From Planctomycetota bacterium (GTDB taxonomy: Bacteria; Planctomycetota; B15-G4; SIAN01), in contig SIAN01000016.1 in the NCBI GenBank assembly GCA_009691715.1, positions 389-64,388 of the forward strand: a DNA stretch of 64,000 nucleotides. Direction: 5' to 3'. The translations under genes and the position numbers were made by a program. The notes beneath the pieces were generated by a model. That model was not told the DNA's origin. It was given only the letters and a program-made list of their open reading frames with translations, and did no database searches. How positions within the stretch are numbered: position 1 is the first letter of the stretch; each line of letters starts with the position of its first letter. This document shows positions 8,751 through 22,823 of the stretch, one piece after another.

Positions 8751-9994
8751 GCCGGTGGGCGCAGGCTGTGTCGTCTCTGGCGGTTGTGGCGCTCTTCGTC
8801 CCGTTGGCTTCGGCGCAGGCCGGCAGTGGTGCCGCGAAGCAGTTCCTTGCCAGCCTCGACCTTGACGGCAACGGCTACGTCGGCCGCGATGAGTGGAGCG
8901 GCAGCGGCGCGACGTTTGTCCTTCTCGACGTCGACCTCGACGGTTGGCTCACCGGTCCGGAGCTCACGAAGTCGACCAAGGCGGGCGCGCGCGCCGTCGA
9001 AGCTCCCGATCCGAGTCGCCTCGCGGTGGCGATCGGCGACCTGCCCGATCTCGTCGAGCCCTTCCGTCGCAGCTGCCTCGCCTGCCACGATCAGCAGCGG
9101 GTGGAGCGGGCGGCGAAGGACGCGAAGGGTTGGTCCGAGACCGTGCGCAAGATGCGTGAGAAGAAGGAGGCGTCGATCACGGAGAAGGACGCGCGCGCGA
9201 TCGTCGAGTGGCTTTCGGACCAACGCGCGCGGGTTGCGCTGTCGCTGGCAAGCTTCGGCACCGGCGATCCGGTCGGCGCGTGGGGCATGGTGATCGGCGG
9301 GGGCGACCTCCACTTGTTCGACCGCGACCGCAACGGAAAGCTCGAGGGTGGCGAGTTGGCGCGGCTGATCCACCAGCGCGCTGATCTCGACCGGGACCAA
9401 CTCCTGTCGCCGGGCGAGCTAGCGCTGCTGCCGCTCGCGGTCGACCGCCGCGCGCTGTTCCAGAAGCTCGATCGCGACAAGAACGGCGGAGTCAGCCTGA
9501 AGGAGCTCGGGATTCCAGCGCCGCTCCTCCAATTGTTCGACCGAAACGCCGACCAGCAGCTCGAGCGCGGCGAGCTGCCGAGTTCGCGCCGCTACGGCGG
9601 GCCGATCTCGATGATCCTGATCGGTGACGCGAAGACGGCGCTCGATCTCCTCGACCGGGATCACGACAAGAGCCTCTCCGCCGCCGAGCTCGCTCGCTTT
9701 CCGCGGACGCTCATGCGCTTCGACGGCGACAACAACGCCAGCCTCGATCCGAAGGAGCTTGAGACCGCGGTCACAGCTGGTCGTGCCGAAGGCCCTCTCG
9801 CGGCCTTCGACGACTTCTTCACCCGCTACGACCTCGACGGTGATGGCAGCGTCGCACGCCGCGAGTTTCCGGGTCGAGACGCCGCGTTCGCCCGCCTCGA
9901 TCTCGACGGCGACGGCGTGCTGACGTCGCGCGACGCGCAAGGCGGCATGACCCGAGTCGACTTCACGCCCGAGGCGTTGCGCTGGCGCGATTGA
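8747..9994 (+). CDS. Secreted multi-EF-hand calcium-binding protein with one c-type heme motif
   Basis: ATGA overlap with the upstream stop. Signal peptide (..LASAQAG). Ten DxDx(D/N)G..-type 12-residue loops (DLDGNGYVGRDE, DRDRNGKLEGGE, DLDGDGSVARRE...). One CLACH motif. Confidence 0.85.
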   Translation: MSRWAQAVSSLAVVALFVPLASAQAGSGAAKQFLASLDLDGNGYVGRDEWSGSGATFVLLDVDLDGWLTGPELTKSTKAGARAVEAPDPSRLAVAIGDLPDLVEPFRRSCLACHDQQRVERAAKDAKGWSETVRKMREKKEASITEKDARAIVEWLSDQRARVALSLASFGTGDPVGAWGMVIGGGDLHLFDRDRNGKLEGGELARLIHQRADLDRDQLLSPGELALLPLAVDRRALFQKLDRDKNGGVSLKELGIPAPLLQLFDRNADQQLERGELPSSRRYGGPISMILIGDAKTALDLLDRDHDKSLSAAELARFPRTLMRFDGDNNASLDPKELETAVTAGRAEGPLAAFDDFFTRYDLDGDGSVARREFPGRDAAFARLDLDGDGVLTSRDAQGGMTRVDFTPEALRWRD

Positions 9995-9999
9995 ATCCT

Positions 10000-10329
10000 C
10001 TAACGCAGGATCTCGATTCCGCCGTGCGCGATGGAGAAGAGCACGCACGGCGGACCGTCGGCGAACGCGATCGGCGCGTGGATCGAACCGGCCTCGAATC
10101 GCCGGAACTCGCCCATCCGATGCTCGCCACGCTCGTCGCGGAAGCCGCCTTGGAGAACGAAGACCTCCTCGTCGCCGACATGGCGATGGCGCGGGTACGC
10201 GCACCCTGGATCCATGCGCACCAACACCGCCGCGTCGCCGGTCGCCGCATCGGTCCACAGCTCTTTCACGTAGATGCCGGCTCGCCGCGAAACCGGCCAG
10301 TCGACAGCCATCGGATCGAAGCGCATCAT
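10000..10329 (-). CDS. ChrR-like cupin domain protein
   Basis: MMRFDPM...PGCAYPRHRHVGDEEVFVLQGGFRDERGEH..G.....AGSIHAP is a cupin motif. ORF-track extension to 10710 rejected because it overlaps mazG. TAG stop. Confidence 0.75.
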   Translation of the reverse strand: MMRFDPMAVDWPVSRRAGIYVKELWTDAATGDAAVLVRMDPGCAYPRHRHVGDEEVFVLQGGFRDERGEHRMGEFRRFEAGSIHAPIAFADGPPCVLFSIAHGGIEILR

Positions 10330-10365
10330 CCGCCGCCCTTTCCGCCGCGTCCCAGGAGTTGCCGC

Positions 10366-11154
10366 ATGGATCCGCGCGTTGTCGAGCTTACGCGCCTCGC
10401 CGCGATCGTCGACCAGCTTCGCGACGACTGTCCATGGGATCGCGAGCAGACGCTGGCGACGATGGCGCCGTGCGCGCAGGAGGAGGCGGCCGAGGTCGCG
10501 GATGCGGTTGCCGCAGGCGGTTCGGACGCGATCTGCGAGGAACTCGGCGATCTGCTGATGAACGTGTTGCTCATGGGCCGCATCGCGGAACAGGAGGGGC
10601 GATTCAGCCTTGCCGACATCGCGCGGCGAATCTCGGAGAAGCTGGTCCATCGCCATCCTCACGTCTTCGGCGACGCGCACGCGCGCATTTCGCAGCAGGT
10701 GCTGTCGCAATGGGATCGGATCAAGGATGCGGAGCGCGCGTCGAAGGGTGGACGCGACCTGGCGCAGTCGCTGCTCGACGAAGTGCCAGAACGGATGTCA
10801 TCGCTGGCACGGGCGCAGAAGCTCGGCAAGAAGGCGGCGAAAGTCGGGTTCGACTGGCCCGACGCTACGGGCGCGTTCGAGAAGGTGCATGAGGAGTTGC
10901 GAGAGCTCGAGGCGGAGCGTGCCGACCATGCGGCGCCCCCGCGCCTGCAGGCGGAGCTTGGCGACCTGCTGTTTGCGGTCGTGAACGTCGCCCGCAAGCT
11001 CGATCTCGACGCGGACCAGGCGCTGCGCGAGGCCAGCGCGCGCTTCGACCGCCGGTTCCGGCACGTGGAGCAGACGTTCGGCGCGCAACTGGCCGGGACG
11101 ACTCTCGCCGAAATGGAGCGGGCCTGGAAAGCGGCGAAGGCGGCTGGGCTCTGA
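10366..11154 (+). CDS. mazG: Nucleoside triphosphate pyrophosphohydrolase MazG
   Basis: AGGAG lies 7 nt before ATG 10366. CPWDREQT, EEAAEVADA and HPHVFGD, with duplicated MazG domains. Track start 9991 rejected. Confidence 0.9.
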   Translation: MDPRVVELTRLAAIVDQLRDDCPWDREQTLATMAPCAQEEAAEVADAVAAGGSDAICEELGDLLMNVLLMGRIAEQEGRFSLADIARRISEKLVHRHPHVFGDAHARISQQVLSQWDRIKDAERASKGGRDLAQSLLDEVPERMSSLARAQKLGKKAAKVGFDWPDATGAFEKVHEELRELEAERADHAAPPRLQAELGDLLFAVVNVARKLDLDADQALREASARFDRRFRHVEQTFGAQLAGTTLAEMERAWKAAKAAGL

Positions 11155-11277
11155 GCCGCGAACGTCGGCGCTCATCCGACTCCGGGGAGAGCCCGGCAGG
11201 CCGACGCCTTGCCGACTCCGGAAGTGGCGTTATAGAAAGCGGCAATGCCTGGTTAGGGATTGCGCGGAGTCGCACCG

Positions 11278-12174
11278 ATGGTGCCCCCCAACCCGTCGTG
11301 CCTGCGTGCCTTGGTTTCGCTGCTCTCTGACGAGAACCCGCGCGTCTGCGCTCAGGCGCGGCGGGCGTTGCGTGACCACGGCCAGCGTTCGTTCGCCTAC
11401 CTCGATGAGGCGATCGATGGCGCCGACGCGCGCCTGCGCGGCCGAGCGCGGCTCTTCCGCGAGGAATTGCGTGGTGGACTGCTCGAAGTCGAGATGCGTC
11501 GGCTCGGTGAGCGCATCGATGACGATCCCGAGGCGCTCGAGGCGGGATGTCTGCTGTTGGCGCGGACGCGTCGTTTCGAGCTCGACGATCGCTCGATGAC
11601 GGCGGGGCTCGACGCGATGGCTGATGACCTGGGCGCGCGCCTCGGCAGCGAACGGGAGCCGGCGATCGTCGTCGACGTGATGACCCGATTCTTGTCGTGG
11701 GAGCTAGGCTTCCAAGGCAACCAACGCAACTACTATGACCCCGAAAACTGGTTCCTCGACCGGGTTCTCGACCGCCGTCTCGGGATCCCGATCTCGCTCT
11801 GCACGGTCTACCTGTTCGTTGCCCGCCGCCTCGACCTGCCGCTGATCGGCATCGGGTTGCCAGGGCACTTCATCCTGAAGCACGCCGTCGCTGAGCCTTC
11901 GATCTTCATCGACCCGTTCCACGGCGGCCGTGTGTTCGGTGAAGCCGAGTGCCTGCGTTTCCTGGAGGAGCGGTCAGTCGGGTACGACCCGGGCATCCTT
12001 CTGCCGATGTCGGACGGCGCGATGCTGCTGCGGATGATGCGCAACCTCATCCAGAGCTATCGCAATCGTGGCGATCACGGCCGCGTTGTGCTCCTGCAAC
12101 GGATGAAGAGCATGCTGGTTGGCGAAGAGGTTTCCGGATCCGAACTCGGAGCCGGCGGGGAGCAGGAGCGCTGA
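11278..12174 (+). CDS. SirB1/YchA-like transglutaminase-like (Transglut_core2) family protein
   Basis: NYYDPENWFLDRVLDRRLGIPISLCTVYLFVARRLDLPLIGIGLPGHFILK motif. GGAG lies 8 nt before ATG 11278 (track start TTG 11260). Confidence 0.75.
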   Translation: MVPPNPSCLRALVSLLSDENPRVCAQARRALRDHGQRSFAYLDEAIDGADARLRGRARLFREELRGGLLEVEMRRLGERIDDDPEALEAGCLLLARTRRFELDDRSMTAGLDAMADDLGARLGSEREPAIVVDVMTRFLSWELGFQGNQRNYYDPENWFLDRVLDRRLGIPISLCTVYLFVARRLDLPLIGIGLPGHFILKHAVAEPSIFIDPFHGGRVFGEAECLRFLEERSVGYDPGILLPMSDGAMLLRMMRNLIQSYRNRGDHGRVVLLQRMKSMLVGEEVSGSELGAGGEQER

Positions 12175-12267: not shown

Positions 12268-12645
12268 ATGGTGTTCACTGGAATTCGTCATTGGTCAGCG
12301 GTGCGAGCGACGCTTCGGTCCGCGGCGGCGACGGTCGCTGTCTGCGCGCTGGCGGCGTGCAAGGGCACGTCTGAAGCCGATCAGTCGATCCCTGAGGAGC
12401 CGGTCGGTTACGACTCGAGCTATGACAGTTCCGCCGACGACTCGCGCACGACCGACACTTCGCGCGCGGCGGCAACTCTGATGGCGCGGACTCACATCGT
12501 TAAGAAGGGCGACACGCTCTTCGCGCTGGCACGCCAGTACTACGCTGACGTTGCGCAGTGGAGGCGGATCCTGGAAGCGAACAGCGGACGGATCGCCAAC
12601 AAGGACCAGTTGAAGATCGGCCAGGAACTCGTCATTCCCGAATGA
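12268..12645 (+). CDS. LysM-domain lipoprotein
   Basis: GGGAGGG Shine-Dalgarno. Lipobox ALAAC. C-terminal LysM (HIVKKGDTLFALARQYY...IGQELVIP). Confidence 0.85.
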   Translation: MVFTGIRHWSAVRATLRSAAATVAVCALAACKGTSEADQSIPEEPVGYDSSYDSSADDSRTTDTSRAAATLMARTHIVKKGDTLFALARQYYADVAQWRRILEANSGRIANKDQLKIGQELVIPE

Positions 12646-12675: not shown

Positions 12676-13035
12676 ATGACCATGTCTCCCCCGATCCTAG
12701 TCCTGGTCCAAGACCTCTTCTTCCGCGCGAAGATCGAGGCAACAGCGCGCGCTGGCGGTTGGCCGGTGTGGTGCGTGCACGATGTCGCGTCGTTGCCGGA
12801 CGCCGTCGCATGCCGGGCCTGTCTGATCGATCTCGAGTCGGCCGGTGCTGATGCGCTCGCGCGGTTGCCCGGGATCGCCGCGCGGGTGCCGACGATCGCG
12901 TTCGCGTCGCATGGCCGGATCGACCTGCTCGAAGCCGCGCGAGCAGCCGGTTGCCGCGAGGCGCTGCCGCGCTCGCGGCTCGCCGCCGAGCTTGCGCGCG
13001 TACTCGGTTCGCTCGCTGCAGGCGGCGATCCGTGA
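12676..13035 (+). CDS. Degenerate CheY-like receiver-fold protein
   Basis: ILVLVQD...CLIDLES...TIAFASHG... layout of a receiver domain with non-canonical acidic pocket and Lys. 119 aa. Confidence 0.55.
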   Translation: MTMSPPILVLVQDLFFRAKIEATARAGGWPVWCVHDVASLPDAVACRACLIDLESAGADALARLPGIAARVPTIAFASHGRIDLLEAARAAGCREALPRSRLAAELARVLGSLAAGGDP

Positions 13036-14174
13036 CCGCGACCCGATGGTCGACGGCGGTGGCGTTGGCCGCCGCTGGTGTCGTCGGGGGGTGCGCGAAG
13101 GGCTCGTCCGGCAGCTCGAGCGAGGGCGCGCCGTCGGTGGAGCATTCGCTCGCGGTTCCGGACGAGACTGCGCCATCGGCTGTCGCGCCGCCGCCTAGCG
13201 GTCCCGCTTCTTCGCCGCGCGGGCGCTTCGTCAACAGCGACGCCGAACCTTTTGCCTTCGCGGTCGAACCGGACTCGATCGAACTTGGCGTGCTGCGTCC
13301 CGATGAGGATTCGGACTGCGCGTTCGAGATCGTCAACCGCGACTCGCGCCCGCTGCGGCTCGTCAACATCGACGGATCCTGCGACTGCGTCGCGTTCGAA
13401 TACACCCGCGGTGACCTGCCACCGGGGACGCGCCGCAAGGTGGTGGTAAAGGTCAAGGCGGAGAATCGCGGCAACAAGGTGCTGACCGTGTTCGTGCAAG
13501 CGAACGATCGGGTCGTGACCACCCACGAATTGGCGATCCGATACTCGATCGAGCCCGCCCTCGTGTTCGAACCGCCGCGTGCCGACTTTGGCCAGCGGGT
13601 GATCGGTTCTCCCGGCCGTCTTGAGGTGCGCGTCCGCTATCGATTGCCGATCGGGTGCGAGCCACTGACGCTCGCGCCGAAGTGGGTGACTGAAGTCCCG
13701 GCGACGTTCGAGCTTGGCGGCGCACGAGCGGAGCCCTCGGGTGGCGGCCTGGTCGATTTCGATCAACCGCTCGTGCTCGTGCTCGAGGCGAGCCACGCGT
13801 TCAAGTCCTTCAAGTCGGAACTGCTCTTCGAGGGTGTCGGCCATCGCCGCTCGGCGCTTCCCGTGACCGGCTCCGTCCACGCCGAGACATGGCTCGATCC
13901 GGCGGAGCTTCACCTCGGAGTGACTGAGGTGGGAAAGCTTCGCCAGGGGGCCGTCCGGCTACGCTGGACCGTGGAGCCGGTGAATGCCGATGAGATCACC
14001 TGTTCCGTCCCGGAACTGAGGGCGCAGGCGTCGCCGGAACGCGGTGCGCGCGCCCTTCGGATCCAGGTCGAATTCGAGCCGAAGGTCTCTGGCGAGTTCG
14101 CCGGAGACGTCACGATCCGCACCAAGCAGGCAGAGGAACCTCTGGTCCTCCGCGTGCGCGCCAAGGTCCGCTGA
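13032..14174 (+). CDS. DUF1573-like (Ig-fold) lipoprotein, paralog 1
   Basis: GTG 13032 overlaps the upstream TGA (GTGA). Lipobox VVGGC. FEIVNRDSRPLRLVNIDGSCDCV resembles the DUF1573 signature (..N.G..PL.I..V..SCGC). Track start 12951 rejected. Confidence 0.75.
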   Translation: MTATRWSTAVALAAAGVVGGCAKGSSGSSSEGAPSVEHSLAVPDETAPSAVAPPPSGPASSPRGRFVNSDAEPFAFAVEPDSIELGVLRPDEDSDCAFEIVNRDSRPLRLVNIDGSCDCVAFEYTRGDLPPGTRRKVVVKVKAENRGNKVLTVFVQANDRVVTTHELAIRYSIEPALVFEPPRADFGQRVIGSPGRLEVRVRYRLPIGCEPLTLAPKWVTEVPATFELGGARAEPSGGGLVDFDQPLVLVLEASHAFKSFKSELLFEGVGHRRSALPVTGSVHAETWLDPAELHLGVTEVGKLRQGAVRLRWTVEPVNADEITCSVPELRAQASPERGARALRIQVEFEPKVSGEFAGDVTIRTKQAEEPLVLRVRAKVR

Positions 14175-14182
14175 GGAAAGAC

Positions 14183-15346
14183 ATGCGAATGCCCGGTTTG
14201 ATGCTCTCGGTGGCCGTGTTGGTCGCGGTGTCGCTCATTTCCGCAGGTTGCGACGAGCCCTCGCCGCGGTCGGCGACGCCGGCTTCAGTGGCGACGCCCG
14301 CATCTGCTGCGCCGACGGCCGTGGGCGATCCGGCAGCCGCGCGCGCTTCGCTGCCAGCTGCCCTGGTACCCGCCGGCGCCGAGCAAGGCGCCGGCGCGCC
14401 GGCGAAGCCCTGCTTCGAAGTGTCCCCGCCGGGTTTCGAGCTGAACGTCGTCGAGCAGAACTCGGTGCACGACCTCGAATTCTCCGTCATCAACTGCGGC
14501 GACCGGCCGTTCAACGTCGCCTACGTCACGACCGAGTGCAAATGCATGACGCTCGATGTCGACCGCGCGATGTTGAAGCGCGGCAACTCGGTGAAGGTCA
14601 AGCTGCGCGTCACGGCGACCGCCTCGAATGAGCGCAAGACGGCGGCGATCCTCCACCTCTCCGACCCGGCGAAGTCGAAGGTCCGAGTCGAAGTGCACTA
14701 CGCCGTCGTGCCTGAAATCCTGGTCGAGCCTCGCGGTGTCGGCTTCGGTCGGGTCGAGAGCGGCAAGACAGCCGAAGTCTCCTTGCGGGTGACGATGCAC
14801 CTGCCGGGGTCGATCAAGGAAATCCCGAAACTCGAGCCATTCATCGCCCATGACCTGCCGATCAAACTGAGATTCGACGAGCCGAGCATCACGACGTCGG
14901 CAGGCGGGATGCGCGACTGGGTGGCGACGCTCCATGTCGAGCTGGACGGGAAGGAGCCGATCGAGCAGTTCCTGACCCAGTTGGTGTTCAGGCCGACGGA
15001 GAATCTCACGTTCCGCGAACTCGCGGTGCGGGTGACCGGCGAAGTGGTGCCGGCTTGGTATTTCGAGCGCGGCGTCGTCGCGTTCGGCTCGGTCAGCGCC
15101 GGCGAGGCGGTCGAGAAGGAGATGCGTTTCTACTACCCCGGCCCCGAAGTACCCGCGGTGCTGTCCCTCGAGACTGACGTCGCCGGACTCGAGGTCACGA
15201 GCGCGCCGGACGCTGAGCAGCGCTGCCACGTGCTCAAGCTCAAGCTCGTCGCCAAGGAGTCGGGGAAGATCGAGGGGGTCGTGAAGCTGACCACCTCGCT
15301 CAGTTCGGAACCAGCGGTGCTGCGGATCACTGCACGCGCGAAGTGA
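14183..15346 (+). CDS. DUF1573-like (Ig-fold) lipoprotein, paralog 2
   Basis: Lipobox LISAGC. FSVINCGDRPFNVAYVTTECKCM. Alignable with 13032..14174. Confidence 0.8.
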   Translation: MRMPGLMLSVAVLVAVSLISAGCDEPSPRSATPASVATPASAAPTAVGDPAAARASLPAALVPAGAEQGAGAPAKPCFEVSPPGFELNVVEQNSVHDLEFSVINCGDRPFNVAYVTTECKCMTLDVDRAMLKRGNSVKVKLRVTATASNERKTAAILHLSDPAKSKVRVEVHYAVVPEILVEPRGVGFGRVESGKTAEVSLRVTMHLPGSIKEIPKLEPFIAHDLPIKLRFDEPSITTSAGGMRDWVATLHVELDGKEPIEQFLTQLVFRPTENLTFRELAVRVTGEVVPAWYFERGVVAFGSVSAGEAVEKEMRFYYPGPEVPAVLSLETDVAGLEVTSAPDAEQRCHVLKLKLVAKESGKIEGVVKLTTSLSSEPAVLRITARAK

Positions 15347-15926
15347 CCGGCGCAGTCTTGTTCGACGATCGACTCGACGATCGACTCGACGAACGATTCG
15401 ACGAGCTGCGGCAGGCATCTGCGGAATCGGAACAGACATCGGGACCTGAGCCGAATCGCTCAAGCGCGTCGAGTGGGCCGAGCGGGGCCGAGCCGGGCTC
15501 GACCGCCATGCGTTCGACGGGTGCTTGCATGGCGATTTCCTCGACGCCCGCGCGCGCAAGGTGCAGTCGAGCGATCGTCGACGCCTTTTGTGCTTCGATC
15601 TCCTGACGCAAGTCAGCGAGACGCGCTCGTCCTGACTCGACGGCCGCGAGCTCTGCGCGCACCGCGTCGACGGCGGATCGGCCCGCAAGCGTGCGCAGCG
15701 TCTCGACCGATTGATCGACGGCCCTCAGTGCCCGGTCGAGTTCGCGCTCGCGTTTCTCGAGTCGATCGTGCTCGCGCTCGAGGCTGCGGGTCCGGCTGAT
15801 GCGTTCGCCGTTCTCCGGAATCGCGTTGTGCGTCAGCGCGATCGGACAGCCGAGGCGACTGCGTACGCGTCCGACGAGGGCGAACGTCCCGACGAGGCCA
15901 AGGAAGAGCACCGTGCTGGCGCGCAT
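15327..15926 (-). CDS. N-terminally membrane-anchored coiled-coil protein with Ser/Arg-rich tail
   Basis: GGAG lies 8 nt before ATG 15926. TM MRASTVLFLGLVGTFALVG, then heptad-like Glu/Arg/Leu-rich region. High GC3. The 3' end overlaps the convergent gene by 20 nt. Confidence 0.7.
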   Translation of the reverse strand: MRASTVLFLGLVGTFALVGRVRSRLGCPIALTHNAIPENGERISRTRSLEREHDRLEKRERELDRALRAVDQSVETLRTLAGRSAVDAVRAELAAVESGRARLADLRQEIEAQKASTIARLHLARAGVEEIAMQAPVERMAVEPGSAPLGPLDALERFGSGPDVCSDSADACRSSSNRSSSRSSSRSSNKTAPVTSRVQ

Positions 15927-16004
15927 GGCAGGACTCCGGGGCGGCGGCGACCGCGCGGGGGGTGCCCGCGCGGTTCGCCGCCGGATGGTTGAGACGGCGG
16001 AAGA

Positions 16005-16865
16005 TCAGTCGCGGCCGACGATGACGACCTGGGGCGGCGGTTCGACCGCCGGACCGAGCAGTCTCGACAGCCGCTCCCGCACGTCGTTCGCTGCGGGCTC
16101 CGGAGAGTCGTAGTCGATGCCGGCCGGCTTGCCGCCTGCCGCGAGGCGCAGCCGTTCGTCGAGCAACCGACCCTTCACCTCGAGCTTGCCTTCGAACTTC
16201 GCGCAGAGTTGGCGGACCTCGCCGATCGCGGTCTGGAACTCCGCGACGTCGAAGTCGCCCGCGACAGCCTCGGCATAGATCTCCCGTGCTCGCTGCTTCT
16301 CCAGCTTCGCCGCGAGAAGGCGCAGCTTCCCGGTCAGCTCGCCGCGCAACGCTTCGCCGCGGACGACGTTCTCCTTCGCCAGCGCGAGGGCGCCGCGACG
16401 GACTTCGAGCGTCTGCCCCAGCTGCGCGAGCGTGTCCTGCTGCACGCCCCAGAGATCGAGCTTCTCGGCGACGTCGCGCTCGATCTGGGCGCGGGCATAC
16501 GAGCTGCCGCCGATCACGAAGCGTTCGCCGGCGGTGGCTAGGAGCGACTGCGCCTTCTCGAGGTTCTTCTTCAGCCGTTCGATCGCCTGCTGGCGGTCGC
16601 CTGACTCCTTCTCGAGGCGCTGGACCTCGACCTCTTCCGAGATTGAATGTTCGCGCAGTTCGCGGATTTCGGATTCGAGCGACTGCACGCGTGACTCGAT
16701 GCCATGCAGCTCGCCGCGCATGCCCTGGATCTCGTCGATCTTCGCGACGATCTCCTTCTTGCCCTGGTCGAACCAGGCGCACACCTGGTCCTTGCCGTAG
16801 AGGCAGCCGAGCGCGCCGACGCCGAGGCTGCCGAACACCAACGACTTGCCGAGAAACTTCAACAC
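16005..16865 (-). CDS. N-terminally membrane-anchored long coiled-coil protein (PspA/IM30-like character, unverified)
   Basis: GGAGG lies 8 nt before GTG 16865. TM LKFLGKSLVFGSLGVGALGCLYG, then about 230 aa of helical, charged repeats. Confidence 0.8.
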   Translation of the reverse strand: MLKFLGKSLVFGSLGVGALGCLYGKDQVCAWFDQGKKEIVAKIDEIQGMRGELHGIESRVQSLESEIRELREHSISEEVEVQRLEKESGDRQQAIERLKKNLEKAQSLLATAGERFVIGGSSYARAQIERDVAEKLDLWGVQQDTLAQLGQTLEVRRGALALAKENVVRGEALRGELTGKLRLLAAKLEKQRAREIYAEAVAGDFDVAEFQTAIGEVRQLCAKFEGKLEVKGRLLDERLRLAAGGKPAGIDYDSPEPAANDVRERLSRLLGPAVEPPPQVVIVGRD

Positions 16866-16893
16866 GGTTCGATCCTCCGATTCGGGAGATGGG

Positions 16894-17265
16894 TCAACAG
16901 GTCTTCGATTCGGTCGTGGCCGGGTGGAGCGCCTGCGCGTGCGCGGTGCGCCAAGCGTCGGCGATCCCCCAGACCCACGGCACGATCAGCCAGCAAGTGA
17001 GGAGGACTGCGACGCCGCGCAGAGGCTGGCCGTTCAGCGCCTGTCCGGCGCCTGGCACCAGCGTTCCGGCTGCGGCGCGCAGCCACGGCGTCAGACGCGA
17101 GGCGGTCGCACGCGTGCCGTCGGCGCGCACGAGTTCGGCGCCGCAGTGCGGGCAGCCGATTGCGCGCGCGGCGAGGTCGGGCAGCCGCGCGCCGCAGCCG
17201 CGGCAGAACGGCATGAAGGCCGGCGCTTCCGCGAATCGAACCCATGCGAGTGGGGCGGCGAACAT
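16894..17265 (-). CDS. Zinc-ribbon membrane protein with PGxGQ..G...RG two-TM module
   Basis: ATG 17265 with GAGAAGGA upstream. CRGCG...CPHCG ribbon, then LVPGAGQALNGQPLRGVAVLL...GIADAW. Track extension to 17493 rejected (overlaps the upstream gene). Confidence 0.8.
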   Translation of the reverse strand: MFAAPLAWVRFAEAPAFMPFCRGCGARLPDLAARAIGCPHCGAELVRADGTRATASRLTPWLRAAAGTLVPGAGQALNGQPLRGVAVLLTCWLIVPWVWGIADAWRTAHAQALHPATTESKTC

Positions 17266-17291
17266 GAGCTTCTGTTCCTTCTCGCGCCGAA

Positions 17292-17891
17292 TCAGCGGCG
17301 CGTCTCGTGGGCGAGGAGGAGGCTCGCGGCGATGCCGCCGAGTGGGACCAGCAGTTCGCGCGGAGCGGCTGCGAAGCCGCCATGCGTCGTGAGCGTGATC
17401 GCGATGACGCCGAGGCCGATGAGCAGGAAGAGCACGTCGTCGGCTCGTGCGCCACCGGTGCTGACCGCGACGCCCTTGCCGGTCTCCGCGCAACGGAACG
17501 CGTCAAAGAGGCCGAAGACGTATAGGTAGGCGCCGAGCAACGGCGTCATGAACGGTGCGTCGCGCAACATCAGCGCTGCACCGAAGAGGCCGGCACCGCG
17601 CATCACGCGACCGGTGTAGGCCTGACCGAGGCCGGGCACGATCGAGAGCGCGGCGGCGAGCCACCTGCTGCGCGCGTGCGCGCGTGGCGCGACGCCATCG
17701 ACCGGCACCGCAACCGCTGCGCCCGCCGCCGTGACGAACACTGCCGGTTCGGGGTGGAGCGTCGACCTGCAGCTCACGCAGAAGTTGCGAACGCCGTCGA
17801 GCGCGCGGCAGCTCGGGCAGAGATGCAGGCCGCAGCGAACGCAGCGCGCGATCGCTTCCACCGCCGGATGGGTCGCGCAAACGAAGGTCAC
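17292..17891 (-). CDS. B-box-like zinc-finger membrane protein with PGxGQ..G...RG two-TM module plus extra TM segments
   Basis: GGAGG lies 7 nt before GTG 17891. CATHP..CVRCG..CPSC....CVSC, then SIVPGLGQAYTGRVMRGAGLF...GLFDAF. Confidence 0.8.
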   Translation of the reverse strand: MTFVCATHPAVEAIARCVRCGLHLCPSCRALDGVRNFCVSCRSTLHPEPAVFVTAAGAAVAVPVDGVAPRAHARSRWLAAALSIVPGLGQAYTGRVMRGAGLFGAALMLRDAPFMTPLLGAYLYVFGLFDAFRCAETGKGVAVSTGGARADDVLFLLIGLGVIAITLTTHGGFAAAPRELLVPLGGIAASLLLAHETRR

Positions 17892-17953
17892 GGCGAGTCC
17901 TCCCGCCGAGCTTCGTGATCGGTTTCACGAATTCTCCGGCGGCGGCCTCCTAA

Positions 17954-17968
17954 TCAACGCGCGTGCCA
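17954..17968 (-). promoter_or_regulatory. Near-consensus sigma54 (-24/-12) promoter for the 17891..15327 operon
   Basis: Minus strand reads TGGCACGCGCGTTGA versus consensus TGGCACG-N4-TTGC (one mismatch, A for C). Lies in the 207-nt gap after the kinase gene, about 60 nt upstream of GTG 17891. Confidence 0.6.
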
Positions 17969-18098
17969 CCTCGCAGATCCCGCAAGCGCCGCGTCATCGC
18001 TGGCGCAACCGACTGAGAAGAAAGCAGTTGCGGCACCGACTTCGTCTGCCGTCGCTGCCGCCCGCGAGCGCTCTCCGCGGCCGCTTTCCGTACGGTCG

Positions 18099-20102
18099 TC
18101 AGCTTTCCTGACGGCGGATCGAAGGCGGTGGTGGTGCCAGTCGGGCGGTGGCGGCTTCGTGCAGCCCGAACTCGTCGCGACGTCGCCGCGCGGTCTTGTG
18201 CGCCAACACTGTCGCCACGACCCACGCGGCCAGCGCCAGTTGCGATTCGTCGCTGGCGAACAGGGTCAGCGTGCCAGCCAGGAACGCGATGCCGAGCATC
18301 GGGCGTCCGGCGTAGATCAGCCCTGCGCCCGGCACGATCGACCAGCGCAGTGCACGACCAGGGTTCGGCGGGACGCCGATGCCGGGAGGCGCTGAGAGGA
18401 ATGGACGTGGACGCTGCGCCGTGAAGCAGAGCGCGCCGACCAGACCGTCGTGCAGCGGACGCCGAAACGCCGACATCCGGCCGAGCAGTTCGAGCACCAG
18501 GAGCCACGCGATGCCGACGCCACTGAAGGATTGGAACGACGGCGTCGCAGTGAGCCAGCCCGATTCGGAGGCGACGTGGGCGACGCAGTGCGACAGTGCT
18601 GGTGCGAGCAACAGCACGCCGGGAGCTACCAGGAGCGTGCGCGTCGCGGCGCGTAGGACGCCGAGATCGCTACCGTCGCGCCGGCAGAGTCGCAGGCGGA
18701 GCCACTGCCGCCCGATGGTCCGGCCGCCACGCACGTCCGCGGCGACGTAGTAGAGGAGCGCCGCCCCGACGGTCGCGAGGGCGAGCGCCATCGCCTGGGT
18801 TGGGGCACCGACCGGCAATTCGGGTGCCATCAGGCGCGCCGCCAACGACCCGGCCAGGGTCGGCGCGCCAACGAGGACACTGCCGGCCACAAGCAGCAGG
18901 TGCGACAGGAATTCGATCGCGAGAAGGTCGATGAGGAAAGCGAACCCGCGCCGCCACACGCCCGCCGGCTCGAGCACGAACTCGGTCGTCGCTTCGTGCG
19001 GCAGCATGTAGGTCGTTCCGCCGTGCTGCACGCGGCGCAACGGCGGATCAGCGCCGCCGATCGGGTCATTCCCGGCGGCGACCCGCTCCAAGTCCTCGAT
19101 CAGCGCCGCGTGGGTCTGGTAGCGCTGCTCCGGTTCCTTCTGCAGCAGCCGATGCACGATGCGCTCGAGACCGGGCGCGACTGCGGCATTGCGCGTCCGC
19201 AGCGGGAGCGGATCTTCGCGAAGGTGCTTCATGATCACCGCGACGGGCGACTCCGCTTCGTGGGGAGGAGCGCCGCCGAGCACGTGATAGAGGGTCGCGC
19301 CGAACGCGTAGAGGTCGGCACGATGGTCGACGCGGTCGCCGCGTCCCTGCTCCGGCGCCATGTAGTGAGGCGTGCCGAGGATCTCGCCGGTCACGGTCAC
19401 GCGTGACTGCGAGTCGACGGCCTTCGCGAGACCGAAATCGGCGACCTTCACGGTTCCGGCTGCCGTCAGCAACACGTTGCCCGGCTTGATGTCACGATGG
19501 GTGATGCCGAGTTCTGCGGCGGCGAGGAGGCCGCGGACCGCCTGGAGAGCAATCGGCACGATGTTGTCGGGACGCAGCACGCCCCGCTGAGCAGCGGCGA
19601 GCAGGTCCTCGCCTTCGACCAGCTCCATGGCGATCCAAGGCGTCGTGCCGTCGACGCCCGCATCGATGACTTTCACGATGTTCGGATGGTGCAGGGCCGC
19701 GGCGGCGCGCGCCTCGCGTTGGAATCGCGAAATGAAGTCAGGGCGTGATTGCAATCCCGGATGCAGCAGCTTGAGCGCGACCTCGCCGCCACTGCGGGTA
19801 TCGAGTGCGCGCCAAACGCTGCCCATCCCGCCTTGGCCGAGCATGCTGCGGAGCTCGAACGGACCGACCCGATGCGTCTCACGCGGGCCGAGCACCGCAG
19901 TTGCAATACTGCCGGTGGAGCGCGGCGGGGACGCAACGGGCGCTGCGGCGGGCCCTGAGGCGGGCGCGGGCGGTGCGCCGGCGCCGACGTGGGGCACGAC
20001 GCTCCGTTCGCAGCAGGTCGGGCAGGTCACGTCGCGAGTTGCGGCGTCGACCGTCAGCAGCCGGCCGCAGCGGCAGAAGAAGCGCGTCTGTCCCGTCGTC
20101 AC
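18099..20102 (-). CDS. Zn-ribbon / Ser-Thr protein kinase / RDD-domain membrane protein
   Basis: GTG 20102 overlaps the activator TGA (GTGA). [54 protein letters not shown]-type TM region. C-terminal [16 protein letters not shown]. Track start 20528 rejected. Confidence 0.9.
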
Positions 20103-21973
20103 GCGTCCGGCTCGAGACCGAACGCCTTGATCTTCTCGTAGAGCGTGATGCGGGCGACGCCGAGGATTTCCGCTGCCCGGGTCTTGTTCCAACCGGTCGC
20201 CGCCAGCACGGCACGGACGTGCTCCTTCTCCATCACTTCGAGCGAGACGAGCCGGCGCTCGACCCAGGGCGACGCTCGGTCTCCGGATGCGGCGGCGAGT
20301 CCGAGGTCCCCCTCCTCGATCTGCGGCCCTGCTGCGAGCAGCAGCGCGCGCTCGAGGGCGTTTCGCAATTCGCGCACGTTGCCAGGCCATGCGTGGCGGC
20401 GGAGTCGATCGAGCGCGCCGGGCGCCAGCGGCAGAACCGCGCGGCCCGATCCGCGCGCAAGCTCGAGAAGGAGCCAGGGCGCCAGCTCTTCGAGATCGGC
20501 GAGCCGTTCGCGCAGCGGCGGCGCGCACACTTCGACGACCTTCAGTCGGAACAGGAGGTCGGTCCGGAACGCGTCCTTGCGGCAGAGCGCGTCAAGATCG
20601 CGGTGCGTCGCGGCGACGAAGCGGACGTCGACGCGAACCTCTTCGCTCCCGCCGACACGGAAAAAGCGCTTCTCTTCGAGCAGCCGCAGCAGCATCACCT
20701 GGACGTCCGTCGGAAGTTCGCCGATCTCATCGAGGAAGAGCGTGCCGCCATGCGCCAGCTCGACCAGCCCGATTCGGCGCTGGGTCGCGCCCGTGAACGC
20801 GCCCTTTTCGTGTCCGAACAGTTCGCTGCTCACCACATTCGAGGGAAGCGCGCCGCAGTTCACTGCCACGAACGGTGCGCTGCCGCGGGCGCTCTGCTCG
20901 TGGATTCCGCGCGCCACCAGCTCCTTGCCCGTTCCGCTCTCTCCGGTGATGAGCACGGTTGCGTCGACGGTCGCTGCCTTGGTCACCATCGCGCGCAGCC
21001 GCTGCATCGACTCCGAACCGCCGATCAGCTGGCGTTGCGGCGCGGACTCTCGCAGATGCTCGTTCTCGCGTGCGAGACTCTCCTTCTCCCTGCGCGCGTC
21101 GGCGGCGAGGCCGACCTGGTGCGCTGCGGCGGAGAGGAACGAGATCTCGTCGAGGCCGATCGGGGCGGCGAGGCTTCTTGCTGCGACGTAGAGCACGCCG
21201 ACACGGCCGCGCAACGGGATCGGCGCGCACGCGATGCGGACGCTTCGCGCTGCGACGATGCTCTTGGCACCCTTGAGCTCGGGTTCCGACTGCACGTCGT
21301 TCGCGAGGACCGCCTGGCCGTTCGCGAGCACGCGGCGCACGACGGTCATGCTCCACGGCGGCGGCGTCCCGGACTTCGCGTGCGACGCCACGGCGGCGAG
21401 TACGAATGGGGCGCCTTTCGCCGGCCGCGGTCCGATCAGCACATGACCGTCATCGAACGGCAACGTGTCGAGCAACGTCTTGAGCGCGCCATGGAGGACG
21501 GCGCCAACGTCGGTCGAATCGCCAACCACGCGCAGGATGCCGTAGAGCGCCCGCAGATGGCGCGCGCTCGATTCCGGGGACAGGCTCGCCGGCGGGTACG
21601 CGGAGTTCGCCGCGTCGATCGCGAGTTCGATCTCCTCCGGTCCGATCGCGCAGGTCTTGTACGCCTCGGGCGCCGCCTCGTGTGCCTCGACCCGCAGCAC
21701 GAGGCGCCCGATCACGATCGTGTCGCCGTCCTTCAGCCGCGCGCCGTGGATCCGTGAGCCGTTGACGAAGGTGCCGTTGGTCGAGTGGAAGTCGGAAATC
21801 GCGAGGAGCTCGCCGTCGGGGCGCACTTCGCAATGCAGTCGCGACGCGCCCTCCTCGTCGAGGACGACTTCGCATTCAGGTGCTCGGCCCAGCCGCAGCG
21901 AACGGTCGACTTCGACCGCGCGACGTTCGCCTTGCGCGTCGGTCCAGACCAGATCGAGGCGCGCCGCTGCCAC
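20099..21973 (-). CDS. FHA-GAF-AAA+ sigma54-dependent transcriptional activator (Fis-type HTH)
   Basis: GGAGGG lies 5 nt before GTG 21973. FHA ([29 protein letters not shown]). GESGTGKE Walker A. GAFTGA sigma54-contact motif. C-terminal HTH ([21 protein letters not shown]). Confidence 0.92.
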
Positions 21974-21974
21974 G

Positions 21975-22502
21975 TCATCCCTCCGCGTGCGGGCGCGGCA
22001 GCGGGGGGTCGGCGCGGTCGCGGGGCGCGAATGCGACGGCCGACTCGACTTTGTGCATGCCGGCCGGCAGGAGTCGCCAGTAGCGCAGCTCGTCGCCGAG
22101 TGCCGAGCGCAGCTCGTCGAACAGGTCGAGCTCCGCCTCGCCGTGGAACAGCCGGATCGCGCAGCCGTCCGCGCCGACGTGGGTCACTTCCATGAACAGC
22201 ATGTCAAGCATGCGCGCGAGGTAATGGGTCCGCTGCATCCATGGCGGCACGCGTGCATCGCCAATGGGCTGGCGAACGCGGGCCAGCATCGGCACCGGGA
22301 TCCACGGTTCACCGCGGCTTTGCGGCAGGTAGACCTTCGCGCGGTCCTTGCGGGCGTCGAGGACCAGGCCGAACTCGTCGGGGAGCTTCAGCGCATCGCG
22401 GTAGGCGGCGTCGCGGCAGATCACGACATCGCCGACGCGCGCGAGCAGGGCGTTCGTCTCGTTGCTCATCGCCGCGGGAGCATACGGGCTCGCGGCGTCC
22501 AC
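21975..22502 (-). CDS. Hypothetical protein
   Basis: ORF track 175 aa, high GC3, co-directional and tightly packed. Start uncertain (GTG 22502 or ATG 22469). No family recognised. Confidence 0.6.
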   Translation of the reverse strand: MDAASPYAPAAMSNETNALLARVGDVVICRDAAYRDALKLPDEFGLVLDARKDRAKVYLPQSRGEPWIPVPMLARVRQPIGDARVPPWMQRTHYLARMLDMLFMEVTHVGADGCAIRLFHGEAELDLFDELRSALGDELRYWRLLPAGMHKVESAVAFAPRDRADPPLPRPHAEG

Positions 22503-22823
22503 TCACGCTGACGGCGGAGCGCCGCCCGACAGCGCCTGCACGTACCGCATCCGCAGGTCGGCGAGCAGACGCTTCAAGAACTCCGACTCCTCGGCAGTCA
22601 AGTTGCCGTCGGTCTTCTTCTGCAGCATCCCGAGCAGATCGACCATGTTCTTCGCGCGCGGGAGGTCGAGCTTCTCTTTCTGGTGCGTCATCGGATTCTC
22701 GATGACGCCGAGGAAGACCTGCGCCTGAGTTGCCAACCCGATCGCCAGCCCAACGAAGCTCGCTGGGTCGAAGCGTGTCTCCGGGCCGCCTTCATCTGCC
22801 TGTTCGTCGTCAGCGCGTTCCAT
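22503..22823 (-). CDS. DUF1844 family protein
   Basis: ..FVGLAIGLATQAQVFLGVIENP.....KLDLPRAKNMVDLLGMLQKKTDGNLTAEE..FL..LLADLRMRYV matches my memory of DUF1844. Confidence 0.75.
   Translation of the reverse strand: MERADDEQADEGGPETRFDPASFVGLAIGLATQAQVFLGVIENPMTHQKEKLDLPRAKNMVDLLGMLQKKTDGNLTAEESEFLKRLLADLRMRYVQALSGGAPPSA

Follow-up and report, generated by a model that had tools for sequence, protein, structure and literature searches.

A 64,000-nucleotide (nt) stretch of contig SIAN01000016.1 (the window), from a bacterium of the Phycisphaerae (Planctomycetota), carries four small membrane-protein genes, g1 to g4 (minus strand, 17891-15327), downstream of genes for a sigma54 activator with an FHA domain and for a membrane Ser/Thr kinase. 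We propose that g1-g4 are the output operon of a kinase/FHA-activator/sigma54 module conserved in the Phycisphaerae and that they have an effector role like that of the phage shock protein (Psp) response; the probability we give to this reading as a whole is roughly 0.45. We regard the kinase-gated envelope module as real and undescribed, and a Psp-like function for it as plausible. The evidence lies in gene order and a conserved promoter element, in the domains of the two regulators, and in the predicted fold and genomic company of the 286-residue product of g3.

Gene order, promoter and regulators

The argument for a single unit begins with gene order. Across 14 distinct Phycisphaerae loci (that of the window and 13 others, with identities of 35-84% for g3, 28-67% for g1 and 29-84% for g2) the order activator-kinase-g1-g2-g3-g4 is kept in every case. 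It is also intact in the distant loci L013-L018, from which the flanking genes for two DUF1573 proteins, a LysM protein and a transglutaminase, syntenic in closer Phycisphaerae loci only, are gone. Because the order persists where the flanking genes have been lost, the linkage exceeds lineage-wide synteny, and the proposal of a first-pass annotation that the four genes form one unit with the activator/kinase pair is upheld by these distant Phycisphaeraceae. The locus itself lies between pyrG and mazG, among housekeeping genes of conserved synteny. Database searches returned 36 homologue clusters for g1, three of them named and all of these from Planctomycetes metagenome-assembled genomes (MAGs), one such MAG holding an identical copy; a search with g3 gave about 36 clusters, the few with names again being Planctomycetes MAGs, and scanning genomes with the g3 alignment brought in further loci, from Phycisphaeraceae, with identities as low as 35%. 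In closer loci g4 was picked up by tblastn; in the distant ones, where tblastn missed it, g4 is present as a conserved open reading frame (ORF) starting MR(A/T)ST.

Within the 207-nt spacer between the kinase gene and g1, a sigma54-type promoter sequence (TGGCACGCGCGTTGA, 17954-17968, minus strand) with GG at -24, GA at -12 and a single mismatch to the consensus stands 76 nt upstream of the g1 start. One-mismatch sites of this kind, four found in the window and 3.3 expected, are by themselves not above chance. The motif GG[CT]A[CT]G-N4-[TCG]TG[ACT], on the other hand, occurs on the coding strand of all 14 kinase-g1 spacers, 48-84 nt before g1, against an expectation of 0.14; it has 19 matches in 380 kb (all loci, both strands), 14 of them in these spacers, which are otherwise divergent across the loci. 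The earlier placement of the four genes downstream of a sigma54 promoter is thereby borne out. Further upstream, ending 36 nt before the -24 GG, is a palindrome, CGCAAC-N17-GTTGCG (18004-18032, minus strand), that agrees with CGCAAG-N17-CTTGCG at 10 of 12 positions. At least 10 of the 12 positions are matched in seven of the 14 loci, 26-38 nt upstream of the GG, with a background of 2.6% of random 230-nt windows, and CGCAAG-N17-CTTGCG is a plausible candidate for the site bound by the activator. The kinase gene itself contains a perfect sigma54 consensus (TGGCACCCGAATTGC, 18815-18829, minus strand), which was not taken as a promoter; it has no counterpart at the equivalent place in other loci and is for that reason probably fortuitous. 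Additional sigma54-like motifs were seen downstream of g4 in L014 (9449, plus strand), identical to the copy before g1, and inside orf175 in L016 (2609, plus strand), 240 nt upstream of the activator; these extra copies hint at further regulon members or autoregulation.

The sigma54 enhancer-binding activator (20099-21973, minus strand) joins FHA and GAF domains to an AAA+ domain and a Fis-type helix-turn-helix (Pfam Sigma54_activat 226.8 bits, FHA 64, GAF_2 29, HTH_8 48.8). Its translation holds the HEKGAFTGA motif and the phosphothreonine-binding FHA residues GR...SRLH...NGT. The protein scores 249.8 bits against the TIGR02974 pspF model, for which the cut-off is 443.55, and with its N-terminal FHA and GAF domains it is not of the PspF type. 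The GTG start of the kinase gene (18099-20102, minus strand) overlaps the activator stop by 4 nt (GTGA), and its product consists of a CxC...CxxC Zn ribbon, a kinase domain (Pkinase 145 bits, with HRD, DFG and APE motifs in the translation), an RDD domain (41.8 bits, also by Pfam) and a C-terminal hydrophobic segment with a PG-x-G motif, with five hydrophobic segments overall. An FHA domain and a Hanks-type kinase bearing its catalytic motifs are thus encoded together at this locus. A perfect hairpin, CGTCAG-GAAAG-CTGACG (18097-18113, minus strand), spans the kinase stop codon (TGA, 18101-18099) and recurs in L001, L005, L008, L010 and L011; between the regulator genes and the sigma54 operon it could act in translation or in the processing of the transcript.

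Ahead of the activator lies orf175 (21975-22502, minus strand), which encodes a 175-residue conserved protein of unassigned function, without a match in Pfam or the PDB. Because its stop is 1 nt from the activator start, orf175 probably opens the regulator operon. In L001, L005, L008 and L016 a homologue of 155-175 residues is likewise encoded immediately ahead of the activator, and orf175 may count as the module's seventh gene.

The four output genes are closely spaced, with gaps of 26, 28 and 78 nt between g1 and g2, g2 and g3, and g3 and g4, and a purine-rich GGAG/AGGA ribosome-binding motif stands ahead of each start (gggaggactcgccGTG, agaaggaacagaagctcATG, cggaggatcgaaccGTG and ccggagtcctgccATG for g1 to g4); the ORF and upstream-sequence check agrees with the first-pass description of co-directional genes, each with its own Shine-Dalgarno sequence. 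No model reached its cut-off for any of the four in scans of Pfam, NCBIfam and PADLOC. The 199-residue product of g1 (17292-17891, minus strand) has a B-box-like Zn finger, C-x2-H-x8-C-x2-C-x4-C-x2-C-x9-C-x2-C, whose eight Cys/His positions are invariant in the 14 loci (16.9 bits against zf-B_box, PF00643, below the cut-off of 24.1), followed by a PGLGQ membrane module and two more hydrophobic helices. The product of g2 (16894-17265, minus strand; 123 residues) has a CxxC...CxxC Zn ribbon and a PGAGQ membrane module, and the motif that emerges from the 14-locus alignment is CxxC...CxxC, then PGAGQ-x2-NG-x3-(K/R)G ... DA-x3-A. Its Pfam matches are all below cut-off (TM2 16 bits against 27.9, DUF6677 15.4 against 24.3, DUF5683 11.9 against 26.7, and a weak Zn_ribbon), and the PG-x-GQ module would resemble TM2, DUF5683 and DUF6677 at the level of the motif only. 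A hidden Markov model (HMM) of the g2 module matches every g1 (E-values 1e-8 to 3e-5) as well as the kinase C-termini of distant loci (1e-9 to 5e-6), and no other ORF of the window. The module common to g1, g2 and, in the distant loci, the kinase suggests contact within the membrane. Of the view that these are two Zn-finger proteins on two-transmembrane (TM) modules, then, the Zn fingers and the membrane module stand, and the count of hydrophobic segments does not, g1 having more than two.

The g4 product (15327-15926, minus strand; 199 residues) is a short coiled-coil protein anchored in the membrane: residues 3-19 are hydrophobic, and some 100 residues of coiled coil come after them. An alignment of 15 loci shows an MR(A/T)ST N-terminus, LARAG/LA(Q/R)(I/V)R, and SP(V/I)(D/E)xL towards the C-terminus; the last ~40 residues (Ser/Arg-rich; 15327-15440) are not conserved, and homologues have 163-190 residues. 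By hhalign g4 compares with the g3 family at a probability of 66% and with PspA at about 1%, which is no signal, and the part of the earlier proposal that would make this protein PspA-like falls away. That both g3 and g4 encode membrane-anchored coiled coils is supported by model, alignment and hydrophobic segments.

The window has an even composition of about 68% G+C, without an island. An Rfam scan of 15000-22600 gave no match, and a scan of 15000-18300 for sigma70-like promoters and for terminators gave none of the former and, on the minus strand, no convincing internal example of the latter. Convergent to the operon on the plus strand are a tandem pair of DUF1573/HYDIN-type genes with immunoglobulin-like domains (12951-15346), a LysM protein gene (12268-12645) and a gene for a transglutaminase-like protein (11260-12174); the 3' end of g4 overlaps that of the nearer DUF1573 gene (14183-15346, plus strand) by 20 nt.

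The g3 family and its genomic company

The g3 gene (16005-16865, minus strand) encodes a protein whose two AlphaFold models (pLDDT, the per-residue confidence score, 77 and 79) predict a hydrophobic helix at residues 2-23, a helix at 25-109, a beta-hairpin at 115-124, a second long helix at 125-204 completing a helical hairpin, a further helix at 207-242 and a disordered tail. An exhaustive profile search recovered at least 449 representative clusters with an E-value of 1e-3 or better, 94 of them reaching 1e-10, with most members 255-300 residues long and matched almost end to end. No curated model covers this family. Its named members are all Planctomycetota (Isosphaeraceae, Pirellulales, Pirellulaceae, Phycisphaerales and 'Planctomycetota bacterium'), and its hallmarks are a motif at the hairpin tip, [FY]-x-[YI]-x-G-x2-Y-x7-D-L-x2-R, together with G24, L109, L184 and I250. 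Helix 2 contains a threonine (T145) that 59% of 135 members share. The sole clear domain fusion seen in the family is P0288 (406 residues), which has a C-terminal SHD1 domain (PF03983, 42 bits); the N-terminal extensions of P0283, P0258 and P0337 contain no domains and are probably mis-called starts.

Nine distant genomic contexts of the family were available, eight of them with enough flanking sequence to be read (L021/L022, L023, L024, L033, L034, L035, L036 and L037); the ninth, that of P0199, ends at a contig edge and shows only a g2-like gene upstream. A Ser/Thr kinase is encoded within three genes of the g3 homologue in all eight, and an FHA domain is present in six, standalone in L021, L034, L035, L036 and L037 and borne by the activator in L023. 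The standalone FHA protein of L036 falls just below the Pfam cut-off (18 against 20.7 bits), the other four above it. The order in L021/L022, L034, L035, L036 and L037 is g3 homologue, FHA protein, kinase, and a gene for an extracytoplasmic function (ECF) sigma factor follows in L021/L022, L035 and L037. L033 reads PP2C ... kinase, ECF sigma factor, a 137-residue protein and g3 homologue, with no FHA domain on record.

The remaining two contexts return to sigma54. In L023 an FHA-sigma54 activator is followed by a 179-residue TM coiled-coil protein, the g3 homologue and a kinase (8938-10830, plus strand) that carries a PspC domain (48.5 bits) in addition to an N-terminal Zn ribbon; such a Ser/Thr kinase-PspC fusion is not mentioned in the Psp surveys that were searched. 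L024 has a GAF-sigma54 activator, a 159-residue TM coiled-coil protein, the g3 homologue and a kinase, with no FHA domain on record. Between the activator gene and the operon of the g3 homologue there is a TGGCAC-type site in both, that of L024 (TGGCACGGGTCATGC) being a perfect GG-N10-GC site and that of L023 (TGGCACAGAATTTCC) having one mismatch. The TM coiled-coil genes of L023 and L024 were considered as g4 orthologues and dropped, the g4 HMM giving no match there.

PP2C phosphatases are encoded nearby in L033 and L034, and a small zf-HC2-like or unassigned protein is present in L021, L033 and L035. Upstream of the Pirellulales g3 homologue in L021 (~9600-9720), a 15-nt unit, CTGCTGCCCAGGCGA, is repeated in about seven tandem copies.

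Likeness to PspA and Vipp1, and other readings of g3

In a Foldseek search of 350,542 PDB chains the best matches to g3 were Vipp1/PspA, taking the first four places for model 1 and the first eight for model 2, with E-values of 1.2e-3 to 1.8e-2, identities of 16-20% and TM scores of 0.4-0.77. Among these chains are 6zvr, 8qbw, 8qbs, 7o3w and 9hzm; 6zvs_A aligned with a TMt of 0.77 and a root-mean-square deviation of 3.4 over 148 columns. The predicted fold thus aligns best with members of the PspA/IM30(Vipp1)/ESCRT-III group. Profile comparison points the same way: hhalign placed the wide g3 family against PspA/Vipp1 at a probability of 54-60% (P ~1e-4, score ~37), with reversed controls on either side at 0.4-0.6% and a score of ~17. 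The PspA/Vipp1 multiple sequence alignment used for this is thin, comprising 16 sequences whose diversity comes from a PDB alignment, eight IMG/VR loci and one divergent PspA found on a plasmid by tblastn; a homologue search with E. coli PspA gave enteric sequences only, at 86% identity or more. A Viterbi alignment of g3 residues 56-225 with E. coli PspA 29-179 needs one 20-residue insertion, at the beta-hairpin tip, and sets the loop at g3 203-212 opposite the loop before PspA helix 4, so that helix boundaries are in register.

Several observations weigh against the Psp-like reading. The Foldseek E-values are marginal, with the V-ATPase stalk, SMC coiled coils and the RipA N-terminal domain close behind. 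The narrow Phycisphaerae alignment of g3 gives no hhalign signal against PspA, searching the PDB with the g3 profile by hmmsearch gave nothing but coiled-coil noise, and g3 itself has no match to PspA_IM30 (PF04012) or Snf7 (PF03357) at E<=1. Among 135 family members PspA_IM30 is weakly matched by five (best E-value 0.0014, below the cut-off of 33.9 bits), and the generic coiled-coil models ADIP and Snapin are commoner, with 19 and 16. The sequence evidence is in this respect below accepted thresholds. The N-terminal helix, too, differs from the amphipathic alpha0 of PspA: it is uniformly hydrophobic, with about 20 uncharged residues and a mean Kyte-Doolittle value of 2.4, and would serve as an anchor. 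A conserved K/R pair precedes it, and the flanks have net charges of +2 to +3 on the N side and about +0.7 on the C side, with nearly equal K/R counts of 2.0 and 2.4. The orientation of g3 is therefore ambiguous, leaning slightly to N-in/C-out, an arrangement that would have the coiled coil on the periplasmic side. We give g3 roughly even odds of belonging to the PspA/ESCRT-III superfamily, and somewhat lower odds of working like PspA because of this topology problem. The first-pass suggestion of a PspA-like 286-residue protein accordingly draws support from Foldseek and from hhalign relative to its reversed controls, and meets resistance from Pfam and from the hydrophobic N-terminus.

The rest of the unit raises points of its own against the proposal. 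The C-terminus of the window kinase is degenerate and matches the g2-module HMM poorly. The sigma54 and palindrome motifs were both defined after these sequences had been seen; we still consider the predicted sigma54 promoter upstream of g1 well supported, since its motif is the canonical -24/-12 element. That the adjacent activator is cognate for this promoter we infer from adjacency alone. In the distant L021, L023, L024 and L033-L035 nothing is matched by the HMMs for g1, g2, g4 and the g2 module, so that the earlier claim of six co-conserved genes holds for the 14 Phycisphaerae loci and does not extend to these. Because g1, g2 and g4 go undetected outside the Phycisphaerae, the pan-phylum core is g3 and a kinase, usually with FHA, rather than six genes; the transcription factor and the accessory membrane proteins differ between lineages. 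We likewise infer the envelope-stress function, the signal behind it and the relay by phosphorylation, together with the way g3 would sit in the membrane and an activity as effector.

A core of this kind can also be read as signalling machinery. In this alternative g3 would be a scaffold or substrate of kinase signalling in envelope growth or division, comparable to DivIVA, GpsB, Wag31 or the actinobacterial FhaA/FhaB-PstP-PknA/B system; the kinase would phosphorylate g3, FHA proteins would dock on it, and g1, g2 and g4 would be lineage-specific accessory membrane partners. The Planctomycetia arrangement, with the g3 homologue adjoining a standalone FHA protein and a kinase, suits it well, as do the nearby PP2C genes in L033 and L034, the phylum-wide and core-like appearance of the family, the housekeeping position from pyrG to mazG and the conservation of T145; the Planctomycetes reportedly lack FtsZ (reference 7 in PMC10936438), which we also count in its favour. 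It is harder to reconcile with the conserved sigma54 promoter and adjacent activator, which imply inducible expression, as does the ECF sigma factor of the Planctomycetia clusters. Pfam scans give no likeness to DivIVA or GpsB, and the kinase of one relative carries a PspC domain, which speaks for the sensing of membrane stress. We consider this scaffold role unlikely, with a chance that deserves to be taken seriously.

The charge pattern of the g3 N-terminus invites a different alternative, in which an N-in anchor leaves the coiled coil in the periplasm as a strut or adaptor to the wall or outer membrane, in the manner of EnvC, RipA or membrane-fusion proteins, its production being regulated by the kinase and activator. 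The K/R pair, the ~20 uncharged residues and the N flank of +2 to +3 do resemble a signal anchor, the Foldseek matches also include the N-terminal domain of RipA (6ewy, TMt 0.71) and further antiparallel hairpins, the Joint Genome Institute's automatic names include EnvC, CwlO-like and Lpp, and one family member ends in an SHD1 domain. The near-equal flank K/R counts leave the orientation unsettled, however, and the constant neighbours of g3 are cytoplasmic kinase and FHA domains, which better fit a cytoplasmic partner. The best structural and profile matches, moreover, are the cytoplasmic PspA and Vipp1, and no peptidoglycan-hydrolase or LytM partner gene is conserved in the distant loci. A periplasmic strut seems to us improbable. 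We are similarly sceptical of an extension of the Psp-like reading by which the whole g3 family would be a membrane-anchored branch of PspA/Vipp1/ESCRT-III, switched by kinase and FHA through transcription (perhaps directly) and remodelling membranes in repair, invagination, fission or budding.

That the cluster might be a kinase-based anti-phage defence system is suggested by matches of the kinase to the PADLOC PD-T4-6 and mad6 models and of the activator to RtcR/PspF-type models, and is rejected as very improbable because these matches are to generic kinase and AAA+ domains only, g1-g4 matching nothing meaningful; the cluster also keeps a fixed chromosomal site with conserved housekeeping neighbours across the class, has even base composition and lacks nuclease, mobile-element and toxin genes.

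Proposed mechanism, relation to known systems and significance

Under the Psp-like reading, the module would be ordered as orf175, activator, kinase, palindromic site, sigma54 promoter and g1-g2-g3-g4, and might work as follows. The polytopic kinase would detect a disturbance of the cytoplasmic membrane or envelope through its sensor part, which here comprises the RDD domain and the PG-x-GQ module and in a relative a PspC domain, and would phosphorylate itself or a partner on threonine. The activator would read this phosphothreonine with its FHA domain, which would free its AAA+ domain, and, bound at CGCAAG-N17-CTTGCG, would open the sigma54 promoter 76 nt upstream of g1. Of the products, g3, possibly with g4, would be the membrane effector, a PspA/Vipp1-like anchored helical hairpin, while g1 and g2 would join the kinase in the membrane via their common module as co-sensors or feedback partners. 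The regulatory half of this scheme draws on conservation and domain logic, the effector half on more conjectural reasoning.

Compared with the Psp system of the Enterobacteria, the module shares a sigma54 promoter, a nearby AAA+ activator (two genes upstream of the operon), an operon of small membrane proteins and, in the predicted fold of g3, a helix at the N-terminus that would bind the membrane, then a long hairpin, then one more helix; the kinase of L023 adds a PspC domain. It departs from Psp in its activator, which has FHA and GAF inputs where PspF has no input domains, and because of these inputs control is presumably exerted by the Ser/Thr kinase and not by PspA-PspF binding. It departs as well in the hydrophobic N-terminal helix of g3, in a hairpin about 25 residues longer per arm with a conserved beta-hairpin tip, and in two Zn-finger membrane proteins that have no Psp counterpart. 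The small membrane sensors of the first-pass analogy are not recovered, since Pfam finds no homologue of PspB (PF06667) or PspC (PF04024) in the window, neither matching g1, g2, g4 or the window kinase. The large Psp surveys make no mention of Planctomycetes, of FHA domains or of a variant linked to Ser/Thr kinases, and a survey of sigma54 regulons does not describe this operon. According to a planctomycete kinase study, Phycisphaera has few Ser/Thr kinases, and against so small a complement the conserved kinase of the window stands out.

On the regulatory side there are two further parallels. FHA-domain NtrC-like activators are reportedly paired with Ser/Thr kinases in Myxococcus, and here too one protein combines an FHA domain with a sigma54 AAA+ domain, its gene being adjacent and translationally coupled to that of a kinase. 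The present module belongs to a different phylum; its kinase has RDD and PG-x-GQ (or PspC in a relative), and it has a defined, conserved membrane-protein operon as its target. Kinase-linked ECF sigma factors of the ECF43 type are the other parallel. In five of the six Planctomycetia-type contexts (L021/L022, L033, L035 and L037) a g3 homologue accompanies a kinase followed by an ECF sigma factor, usually with FHA between, so that the same effector family appears to be wired to a kinase-controlled transcription factor; that of the window, in contrast, is a sigma54 activator. The window thus holds a kinase/FHA-gated, sigma54-driven membrane-protein operon, centred on an unnamed family seen so far only in Planctomycetota.

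The Planctomycetota have unusually elaborate membranes and pose long-standing puzzles of division and membrane architecture, and their envelope and membrane stress responses are essentially unstudied. The unit described here (kinase, FHA-activator, candidate site, promoter and four-gene output) is defined well enough to be directly testable in cultivable Phycisphaerae, and it opens on to at least 449 clusters of ~270-residue anchored hairpin proteins tied to kinase/FHA signalling. Should the tie to PspA prove false, the family would still be an uncharacterised conserved partner of bacterial Ser/Thr kinases; should the tie to PspA/ESCRT-III hold, an ancient superfamily of membrane-remodelling proteins would gain a branch that is integral to the membrane and regulated by phosphorylation.

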